NCBI RefSeq assembly: GCF_003334765.1
Contig: NZ_QOWT01000113.1
DNA length: 532 nt
Origin: Escherichia coli
GTDB lineage: Bacteria; Pseudomonadota; Gammaproteobacteria; Enterobacterales; Enterobacteriaceae
Strand: one strand, 5' to 3'
Shown: positions 1-532 of the stretch, one piece after another
Layout: every line of letters starts with the position of its first letter
Numbering within the stretch: the first letter of the stretch is position 1
Notes under the pieces: model-generated
What the model was told of the DNA's origin: nothing
The model's input: only the letters and a program-made list of their open reading frames with translations
Database searches by the model: none
Made by a program: the position numbers and the translations under genes

Positions 1-497
1 GCCATATCCCATTCATGGCAGGGCTCCGTTTTGTCGGCCTGCGTCACCACAAACAGCACCTGCTGATGTCCCCGGTGCAGGATGTGTCGCCAGAAATACT
101 CATCCACAGACAGGGCACGGTCATCGGCTTTAATCAGCCACAGTACCAGGTCAAGTTCAGGCAGAATGTCACGGTACAGGGCTTCATACTCTGCATCCCT
201 GTCCCGGCTCTCGCCCACCCCGGGCAGGTCAGTGATAACCATGCTGTGACCATGGCCACTCAGACGGAAGCGCTGCACTTCCCGGGTGCCGGCGTGAACA
301 TCACTGACCGGGGTGACCTCCCCCTGAAACAGTGCATTACAGAGTGAGGATTTACCGGCCCCGCTTTTACCCATAATGCCAATCACGGGTTCGTGACTGG
401 TGAGTTTGCGCAGATGTTCCAGGATGTGACGGGAAAGTGAGTAAGGCAGGGAGGAGAGCGGTTTTTCAATTGCCTCAATGGCATCAGACGGATTCAT
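1..497 (-). CDS. yfjP: P-loop small GTPase of the YfjP/YkfA/YeeP cryptic-prophage family (MMR_HSR1-like GTP-binding domain); N-terminal 165 codons, 3' end beyond the window edge at position 1
   Basis: Manual minus-strand translation from ATG (497..495) is open to the window edge: MNPSDAIEAIEKPLSSLPYSLSRHILEHLRKLTSHEPVIGIMGKSGAGKSSLCNALFQGEVTPVSDVHAGTREVQRFRLSGHGHSMVITDLPGVGESRDRDAEYEALYRDILPELDLVLWLIKADDRALSVDEYFWRHILHRGHQQVLFVVTQADKTEPCHEWDM. GTPase motifs are present in canonical order and spacing: G1 P-loop GKSGAGKS (aa 43-50, nt 348..371), G2 Thr71 in GTRE (nt 285..287), G3 hydrophobic stretch plus DLPG (aa 90-93, nt 219..230), G4-like TQAD (aa 152-155, nt 33..44). The symbol is a family-level call from memory; ykfA or yeeP are equally possible. 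Confidence 0.9.
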   Translation of the reverse strand, partial: MNPSDAIEAIEKPLSSLPYSLSRHILEHLRKLTSHEPVIGIMGKSGAGKSSLCNALFQGEVTPVSDVHAGTREVQRFRLSGHGHSMVITDLPGVGESRDRDAEYEALYRDILPELDLVLWLIKADDRALSVDEYFWRHILHRGHQQVLFVVTQADKTEPCHEWDM

Positions 498-505
498 ACA
501 TGTAT

Positions 506-511
506 TCCCGG
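506..511 (-). promoter_or_regulatory. Weak putative ribosome-binding site (minus-strand CCGGGA, GGGA core) about 8 nt upstream of the ATG at 497
   Basis: Minus-strand sequence upstream of the start reads caccgggaatacatgt-ATG; the GGGA core is a partial match to the Shine-Dalgarno consensus at acceptable spacing. Weak signal. Confidence 0.3.
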
Positions 512-513
512 TG

Positions 514-532
514 AAAAAAGACAAAACCCCGC
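514..532 (-). terminator. Possible 3' tail of a Rho-independent terminator belonging to an upstream minus-strand gene (truncated by the window edge)
   Basis: Minus-strand sequence at the window edge reads gcgggg-ttttgtctttttt: a GC-rich segment followed by a T-rich tract, as expected for the descending stem arm plus U-tract. The complementary stem arm would lie beyond position 532, so the hairpin cannot be confirmed. Confidence 0.25.

Follow-up and report, generated by a model that had tools for sequence, protein, structure and literature searches.

The DNA considered here is a 532-nucleotide (nt) stretch of an Escherichia coli contig (NZ_QOWT01000113.1), referred to throughout as the window, and it carries the 5' part of a gene for a GTPase of the YfjP/YkfA/YeeP family. 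The gene lies on the minus strand, which holds the sole long reading frame: a start codon, ATG, at 495..497 (-) opens a run of 165 sense codons that reaches base 3 without a stop, which would occur by chance with a probability of ~3.6e-4. The frame leaves the window at base 1, and the coding sequence (CDS) extends 376 nt further. E. coli strain ESY002 has an 873-nt CDS whose 5' part the window matches with 100% identity, and this CDS is open to its natural stop; its product, WP_001069714.1, is 290 amino acids (aa) long and is labelled "GTPase family protein". The region 1..497 (-) is assigned to the N-terminal 165 of the 290 codons of this YeeP-type GTPase on the basis of its translation, the ESY002 match, the Pfam family MMR_HSR1 and the ratio of nonsynonymous to synonymous substitution (dN/dS). 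The ATG is the CDS start given by RefSeq and aligns with the start codons of ykfA, yfjP and the homologues from Yersinia and Serratia. At ~506-509 (-) there is a weak Shine-Dalgarno-like GGGA. We regard it as practically certain that the gene is an intact YeeP-type member of the YfjP/YkfA/YeeP family.

How common is the intact gene? When 5,426 complete E. coli genomes were searched by megablast, the window was matched in 4,535 at 95% identity or more, chromosomally in nearly all cases, with a median of 2 and up to 8 copies per genome; identity of 100% across all 532 bases was found in three strains. At least 80% of the gene is kept in 4,072 of these genomes (~75%); the intact state is the norm. 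K-12, which like many assemblies carries a truncated copy, is the exception.

Comparison with the K-12 copies indicates that the paralogue is YeeP-type rather than YkfA or YfjP. The gene shares 96.6% nucleotide identity with the K-12 yeeP remnant over 555 nt (gene nt 321-873), and positions 1..177 (-) of the window, the part kept in that remnant, match it at 98.3% by blastn; K-12-lineage matches cover gene nt 321-873 only. The K-12 truncation breakpoint is at 177/178 of the window, with the loss of residues 1-107, including motifs G1-G3. K-12 yeeP (b1999, in CP4-44; UniProt P76359) is of the same lineage and has the same downstream layout of isrC and Ag43, but it lacks the first 320 nt, which encode the N-terminal helices, G1, G2 and G3, together with the promoter and leader, whereas the gene in the window is complete. 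By contrast, BLASTP of the full protein against YkfA and YfjP gives 49.5-49.8% identity over 291 columns (E ~1e-97), and the 165 aa encoded in the window are 56-58% identical to them (E ~1e-65). YkfA (CP4-6) and YfjP (CP4-57) share with the YeeP-type protein its length, G motifs, leader cassette and island module, as well as a C-terminal tail of the form ...VSVARAVW-D/N-FFF. They nonetheless belong to a different paralogue clade: their G4 motif is SQSD where the YeeP-type motif is TQAD, and DUF932 and a WYL regulator, not Ag43, lie downstream. The NCBI Conserved Domain Database lists the YkfA/YfjP group as the Era-like "YfjP" subfamily. A preliminary description of the window, made from its letters alone, had proposed an island GTPase of this family, and the end-to-end match to YfjP and YkfA bears this out; alignment to the three K-12 members, which it had suggested for naming the paralogue, points to YeeP. 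Its placement of those members agrees with the K-12 annotation, in which ykfA is in CP4-6, yfjP is in CP4-57 and yeeP is a pseudogene in CP4-44 by isrC/flu and cbeA/cbtA. Its 165 N-terminal codons without a stop or frameshift are those of the frame from 497 to 3, on a strand that it had left unstated. It also judged that the copy looks functional over the region visible and advised checking the C-terminal half; that half is undisrupted in ESY002, and the low dN/dS and the CDS open to its natural stop agree with a functional copy.

Is the open frame simply the remains of a decaying element? Truncated copies occur in K-12 and many assemblies, and neighboring genes are often pseudogenes, so the frame might be a functionless remnant of a cryptic element that happens to have stayed open. 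Substitutions among three alleles (ESY002, O157:H7 SS52 and EC9952) argue otherwise: over the whole YeeP-type gene dN/dS is 0.10-0.15, the 165 codons that the window contains give 0.03-0.07, and among four ykfA/yfjP-type genes it is 0.13-0.20. Judged from these ratios, the YeeP-type protein is under purifying selection and is not a decaying remnant. The prevalence of full-length copies in complete genomes also speaks against a remnant, as do the invariance of the G motifs and the retention of the fold below 30% identity and across phyla. The remnant explanation, already disfavored, is left with the faintest of chances. The substitutions also bear on the longest alternative frame, a 110-aa antisense open reading frame (ORF) at 15-347 (+). 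This frame was dismissed as arising incidentally from the coding strand, because substitutions between alleles track the minus-strand frame, with the low ratio noted above over its 165 codons.

The motifs of the GTP-binding (G) domain were placed by alignment to Der and within a family alignment of 48 sequences, to which the conservation values here refer. G1, the P-loop, is GKSGAGKS (residues 43-50; 348..371 (-)), aligned to the P-loop of Der, with G43, G46, G48, K49 and S50 invariant. G2, in switch I, is Thr71 (285..287 (-)), which is at least 90% conserved. G3 is DLPG (residues 90-93; 219..230 (-)), followed by V-G-E; D90 and G93 are invariant, P92 and E96 are at least 90% conserved, and the family pattern is DxPGxGE, from which the Ras-type catalytic Gln is absent. 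G4 is TQAD (residues 152-155; 33..44 (-)), aligned to NKLD of Der. Family-wide this motif is (N/T/S)QxD, with the consensus NQxDK (residues 152-156; 30..44 (-)), meaning that the Lys of NKxD is replaced by Gln while the guanine-specifying Asp is kept (D155, at least 90% conserved). G5, SAR (residues 199-201), lies beyond the window and is present in the full CDS only. The earlier statement that all G motifs are preserved is thus right for G1 to G4 in the window; it does not extend to G5, and TQAD is not the canonical NKxD. The G motifs are invariant over the 48 homologues, down to 28% identity. Y108, D116, R127 and P159 are also invariant family-wide. In the Era, MnmE, dynamin and septin groups, hydrolysis typically needs an extra element that is supplied by dimerization. 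The missing Ras-type Gln after G3 hints that hydrolysis by the YeeP-type protein would likewise need another element, typically one supplied by dimerization.

The family is large and widespread. HMMER searches returned 2,054 cluster representatives at E < 1e-3, of which 158 pass E < 1e-30, and relatives of ~60% identity occur throughout the Enterobacterales. A family profile search of genome contigs, in which the back-translated query was effectively the generic P-loop, gave two close relatives, from Citrobacter and Oscillibacter, among the matches listed and otherwise distant cyanobacterial G domains. The best Pfam family is MMR_HSR1, on residues 39-151 (E = 1.5e-14), and no specific family for the YeeP-type GTPase was found in NCBIfam, PADLOC or PHROGs.

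A common label for such proteins, "50S ribosome-binding GTPase", implies an Era/EngB/Der-type GTPase that associates with ribosomes and acts in their assembly. The MMR_HSR1 match fits this idea, and of the solved structures it is the G domains of Der, Era and MnmE that match best in sequence. However, the Pfam name describes a generic G domain and no tested trait of the YfjP/YkfA/YeeP family, and every NCBIfam match is far under its cut-off (Era 52 vs 237 bits, Der 47.7 vs 306.7, YsxC 38.9 vs 124.5). No KH domain, second G domain or other RNA-binding domain was found among the Pfam matches, and the parts outside the G domain are helices and a hydrophobic tail. Unlike Era, EngB (YihA), Der (EngA) and MnmE, the YeeP-type protein has no KH domain, GidA-binding domain or second G domain, and its gene is island-borne, multi-copy and dispensable, with the K-12 copy truncated. 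From its sequence, we take the YeeP-type P-loop also to be without the Asn typical of potassium-activated members of the Era/EngB/Der/MnmE group. The scores below cut-off and the absence of an RNA-binding domain rule out an Era/EngB/Der orthologue, and a role in ribosome assembly is highly unlikely.

What does the whole protein look like? A single-sequence AlphaFold2 (AF2) model was unusable (predicted local distance difference test score, pLDDT, 42.6), and the model built from the 48-sequence alignment was used instead (pLDDT 94; predicted template modeling score 0.91). In this model two helices (residues 3-14 and 19-33; 399..491 (-)) precede the G domain (residues 38-226), and two long helices (236-260 and 264-289) follow it. 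The prediction is of an Era/EngB-like G domain that would be clasped by the N-terminal helices and the two long C-terminal helices. The protein is a stand-alone TRAFAC GTPase of ~290 aa, and the window covers the 5' two-thirds of its G domain. Its end is aromatic and hydrophobic (...VARAVWNWIFF), and C-terminal tails are hydrophobic/aromatic or amphipathic family-wide, with glycine-zipper-like ends in some distant members. Foldseek against AFDB50 recovers many uncharacterized proteins of ~290 aa with template modeling (TM) scores of 0.9-0.98. Against the Protein Data Bank, the top whole-chain matches are immunity-related GTPases (IRGs), namely Irga6/IIGP1, Irgb6, Irgb10 and GM4951 (query-normalized TM 0.55-0.58, E 1e-9 to 1e-8, ~285 aligned columns), followed by Era and Toc34. 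The YeeP-type protein differs from these larger relatives in size: IRGs are ~400 aa and the dynamin-like proteins LeoA, BDLP and IniA are 560-700 aa, as compared with 290 aa and an identity of 15-22%, and the stalk and paddle of dynamin-like proteins are absent. The corresponding Pfam matches are not significant, either for IIGP (PF05049; i-Evalue 0.017, residues 24-99 only) or for Dynamin_N.

Upstream of the ATG is a leader with a conserved arrangement. A GC-rich, terminator-like hairpin, CCCCGCCACC-TTTCC-GGTGCGCGGGG, is followed by a T-run, TTTTGTCTTTTTT, ~15-30 nt ahead of the ATG; the full cassette, promoter included, is at 20514-20620 (-) of the ESY002 locus (L001). The window holds only the 3' arm of the hairpin (GCGGGG, 527-532 (-)) and the T-run (514-526 (-)), that is, positions 514-532, and the 5' arm and promoter lie past its end. 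Leaders were folded one sequence at a time against shuffled versions. For the gene in the window the minimum free energy is -19.5 kcal/mol (z = -4.0), with 0/200 shuffles as stable, and hairpins with z of -3.0 to -8.7 occur in 9 of 12 leaders, again with 0/200 shuffles as stable and with a U-run after each. The same leader arrangement is found in the paralogues and in other genera. MAFFT and RNAalifold applied to the leaders gave no consensus structure, and the hairpins share no homology, whether in sequence or in register; there are at least five unrelated stem sequences, with structure retained. Within groups, the stems show paired changes: among L001, L039 and L005 these are A-T to T-A and C-G to A-T, whereas ykfA and the second CP4-57 copy show C-G to T-A. 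An Rfam search found no family for the leader; its sole match was IsrC/IS102, which is downstream.

The promoter block, ~25 nt upstream of the hairpin, is invariant in YeeP-type genes, ykfA, yfjP, Yersinia and Serratia. In ykfA and yfjP it is the TTGAAA-15-TATCAT site for RpoD holoenzyme reported from genomic SELEX (systematic evolution of ligands by exponential enrichment; PMC3946193). At the core of the block, and overlapping the -10 element, is the inverted repeat GATA-N(1-2)-TATC. Within the 843 kb of loci examined, the leader motif is almost confined to the leaders of these GTPases. It recurs in CP4-57 upstream of ypjI/lfgA (L003 23456-23530 (+)), with its own hairpin and T-run, and two further islands have it ahead of their DUF932 genes (L041 10424 (+) and L043 20626 (+)). 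These extra copies head the sub-module that runs from DUF932/antirestriction to CbtA, which suggests one regulator for both halves of the backbone. A scan of viral contigs with the promoter motif gave 57 matches, of which 2 are real cassettes before a family GTPase and the rest are chance. A similar layout is known from the AlpA/PalpB/tB switch of Pseudomonas aeruginosa (PMC7969949, PMC9371919), which shares a promoter-internal element and a terminator before the first gene, with an AlpA-family protein encoded. The AlpA protein of P. aeruginosa has been proven to act as an antiterminator; it binds an element between -35 and -10, and the terminator lies upstream of the first gene (PMC7969949).

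At the exact-match locus in ESY002, the downstream genes given here are all co-directional with the GTPase. The Ag43/Cah gene is 372 nt downstream and is a pseudogene with an internal stop (L001 16407-19253 (-)). As in K-12, the GTPase stop is separated from the Ag43/Cah start by the small RNA IsrC/IS102 (Rfam RF00124, 74.6 bits) and three GATC sites, the region of the agn43 Dam/OxyR phase switch (L001 19272-19508 (-)). Beyond Ag43/Cah are genes for an 838-aa protein, IrmA, DUF905, DUF932, antirestriction, RadC/JAB and DUF987 proteins, and then a hypothetical protein, the YeeU antitoxin and the CbtA toxin; next come a yagP remnant and the core genes paoDCBA. On the other side, the divergent upstream neighbor is a DUF2971 gene (L001 20851-21591 (+)) that matches the PADLOC candidate single-gene defense PDC-S31 (2.5e-58). 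Past it come insertion sequence (IS) debris, a group II intron and genes for two proteins. One protein is Gp2-like; the other, of 68 aa (L001 28406-28612), shares 85% identity with an AlpA-family protein (PF05930) encoded in a Serratia island. A tyrosine recombinase is ~35 kb off, in a mosaic region, and no tRNA attachment site was found in the ~120 kb of E. coli context examined. The preliminary description had expected Ag43-like and CbtA/CbeA-type toxin-antitoxin neighbors outside the window and had proposed annotating the flanks. Both kinds of neighbor are present here, and the flanks show an island, with the genes listed above and an integrase, the tyrosine recombinase, ~35 kb away. Island neighbors are also present for the O157 and EC9952 alleles. 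The mosaic region upstream of the GTPase (L001 35151-36659 (+); L045 691-10226) has an ltrA group II intron within an IS3/IS629 element and a complete lsr operon for autoinducer-2 uptake, both situated between island remnants and a tyrosine recombinase.

The neighboring autotransporter gene raises the possibility that the GTPase is an accessory or regulatory factor for Ag43/Cah, with an effect on how Ag43/Cah is expressed, phase-varied or secreted. YeeP-type islands always have isrC and agn43/cah immediately downstream of the GTPase, and the three-GATC region in between. However, Ag43 is restricted to YeeP-type members, and most of the family (ykfA, yfjP and the members in Yersinia, Serratia, Klebsiella, Plesiomonas and plasmids) has no autotransporter nearby, which therefore argues against a role related to Ag43. 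Moreover, the ESY002 GTPase is intact despite the internal stop in its Ag43 gene, and K-12 expresses phase-variable Ag43 with yeeP truncated. ESY002 and K-12 are mirror images in this respect: one has an Ag43/Cah pseudogene and an intact GTPase, the other an intact flu and a truncated yeeP. There is only a very slight chance that the GTPase serves Ag43.

A broader view of the family shows that the GTPase heads a conserved module. The typical order is the GTPase, usually a WYL/YfjR-type regulator, YfjS/YafY, IrmA, DUF905, DUF932, antirestriction, RadC, DUF987, CbeA, CbtA and DUF4942. The genes of this string all point the same way, and the GTPase comes first in Yersinia ruckeri, Serratia, Klebsiella, Plesiomonas and Citrobacter as well as on plasmids of Salmonella and E. 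coli. The elements that contain the string, CP4-like islands found across Enterobacterales, also encode a P4-type integrase, AlpA, a YagK/YfjJ (Gp2-like) protein and DUF3987. Defense genes occupy their variable part, among them NERD helicase, OLD/UvrD, LmuB, nSTAND3, TIR, RES and restriction-modification systems. A homologue with 37% identity is found in an Oscillibacter metagenome-assembled genome, a Firmicute (L012 6739-10810 (+)), in one string with genes for a DUF932-type protein (TIGR03299), a lambda-type exonuclease and RecT and with a 113-aa ORF. The linkage of the GTPase to DUF932 therefore crosses phyla.

The module also has counterparts on plasmids. DUF932 homologues (60-63% identity) are found on at least 5,000 plasmids, 88% of which are conjugative. 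For example, the leading region of the IncF plasmid pRM9131-2 (L046 3195-9822 (+)) carries ssb, DUF905, ParB, psiB, hok and DUF932, and then traM, so that in this plasmid DUF905 and DUF932 are located between ssb/psiB and oriT/traM. By comparison, just 83 plasmids carry the GTPase, which is essentially absent from sequenced phages and rare in viral contigs. The GTPase-headed island backbone resembles the leading, or "establishment", region of plasmids, and by analogy the island module may share the role of that region in establishment. Two small mobilizable Col-type plasmids have a family GTPase as near-sole cargo: pE1246_2 (5.9 kb; L036 3101-5492 (-)) and pN16-1393-c (4.8 kb; L037 1245-2126 (-)), with GTPases of 44% and 32% identity, respectively. 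This hints at a self-contained, selectable function. One of the two plasmids adds a 144-aa hypothetical protein and an EcsC-family protein with a weak PDC-S29 match.

What might the GTPase do for the element that carries it? The explanation that we prefer combines the identity of the gene, the predicted fold and the conserved module with a proposed mechanism and gated expression, and taken whole we consider it moderately probable. The mechanism on its own we consider less likely than not, and it is drawn from fold resemblance and gene context only: the protein would be a dimerization-activated, probably membrane-associated, IRG/dynamin-like switch that serves the island. First, the sigma-70 promoter with its GATA-N(1-2)-TATC operator would start a short leader that ends at the intrinsic-terminator-like hairpin. 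Second, the GTPase and the genes behind it would be made only if transcription passes this hairpin or the operator becomes free, the candidate regulators being the AlpA-family protein of the island and the WYL (YfjR) regulator. Third, the product may be a low-affinity GTPase that is switched on by nucleotide-dependent dimerization, like its IRG, Toc, GIMAP and dynamin-like relatives. Fourth, it would probably act at a membrane, via its C-terminal tail. In this scheme the GTPase would serve the mobile element rather than ribosome assembly, whether in its establishment, in its maintenance or in conflicts with phages and other elements.

The main rival to this explanation is that the GTPase is a phage-defense protein, a miniature IRG/dynamin-like immune GTPase akin to Eleos (LeoA/LeoBC) that would detect or stop infection at the membrane, either by itself or together with a small partner. 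The whole-chain fold is nearest to the IRG immune GTPases and is also like that of the dynamin-like LeoA, BDLP and IniA. PADLOC profiles for LeoBC (1.9e-8) and LeoA (1.5e-4) match the protein, and plasmid homologues match better, up to 1e-13. However, these matches are confined to the G domain of models of 560-600 aa (positions 52-162 of 601 only, for LeoBC), and no PADLOC defense system includes the YfjP/YkfA/YeeP family. For a protein of 290 aa, this rules out a component of Eleos itself. In terms of location, the gene always borders variable, defense-rich cargo, including the Lamassu gene lmuB and a CBASS-like nucleotidyltransferase; its divergent neighbor is the PDC-S31 candidate; and the two Col-type plasmids carry a family GTPase with almost nothing else. 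In the O157 island, the genes after Cah encode a patatin-like phospholipase, an RdcB-family protein and a protein annotated as belonging to the dynamin family. Against this, the gene is in the conserved backbone and not in the variable cargo, co-directional with antirestriction (anti-defense) and toxin-antitoxin genes, the family's near-absence from phages extends to viral contigs, and no phage phenotype was found reported in the literature. We consider a defense role of this kind somewhat unlikely.

Two neighbors were looked at as possible partners in this context. The 838-aa protein of ESY002 is unsupported as a dynamin partner, with no Pfam or dynamin match. In the island of O157:H7 SS52 (L043 16205-20558 (+)), the position that the 838-aa protein has in ESY002 is taken by the annotated dynamin-family protein, which is 794 aa, is encoded two genes downstream and has a weak LeoBC match (9.4e-6).

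A bolder version of these ideas would make YfjP, YkfA and YeeP miniature bacterial counterparts of the IRG, GIMAP and dynamin-like immune proteins, membrane-acting and dimerization-activated, which islands would deploy against phages and rivals; their module would be gated by an undescribed promoter-operator-terminator cassette through AlpA-type or WYL read-through. We consider this version unlikely.

Several points weigh against the switch that we favor and its gated expression. A survey of the literature on yeeP, yfjP and ykfA, on the module genes and on leading regions found no functional experiment on any family member, which agrees with the view in the preliminary description that the family has no established function; no paper giving one was found. 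In that literature yeeP figures mainly as a neutral integration site for metabolic engineering, and a yfjP deletion appears, without follow-up, in a persister study. The likeness to IRGs is at the level of the fold only (17-22% identity, TM 0.57), and membership is not established by fold. GTP binding, dimerization and membrane association are each inferred from sequence and a predicted model. The C-terminal tail could instead pack into the helical bundle, given its high pLDDT in the monomer model, and the position of the gene at the edge of defense-gene cargo fits a defense role equally well. With respect to the leader, the cassette is absent from some family members (L032, L036, L037 and L041), and the hairpin could be a 5' stabilizer or the end of a small RNA instead of an attenuator. 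The parallel with AlpA is also imperfect: the AlpA proteins are distant, with only 23% identity between the 68-aa protein of ESY002 and AlpA of E. coli, and the leader operator, GATA-N-TATC, is unlike the Pseudomonas AlpA element, GGGACGN5GGTA (PMC7969949).

What are the implications of these observations? The gene is already annotated and very common, and its family and island context are already recognized. Taken alone, the finding of this sequence matters little, as it is an exact copy of a RefSeq protein found in most E. coli genomes. What is new is the AF2 fold with its likeness to IRGs and dynamin-like proteins, the module that resembles a plasmid leading region, and the conserved leader with its promoter/operator and hairpin. 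The value of the window is as a pointer to a very widespread, strongly constrained and unstudied GTPase that heads the backbone of CP4-type islands, elements that also carry Ag43, the CbtA/CbeA toxin-antitoxin pair and many defense systems. K-12 is misleading about YeeP, because its yeeP is truncated. The fold, the link to leading regions and the leader, whose promoter had already been detected by SELEX for ykfA and yfjP, turn the question of what this GTPase does into concrete experiments.

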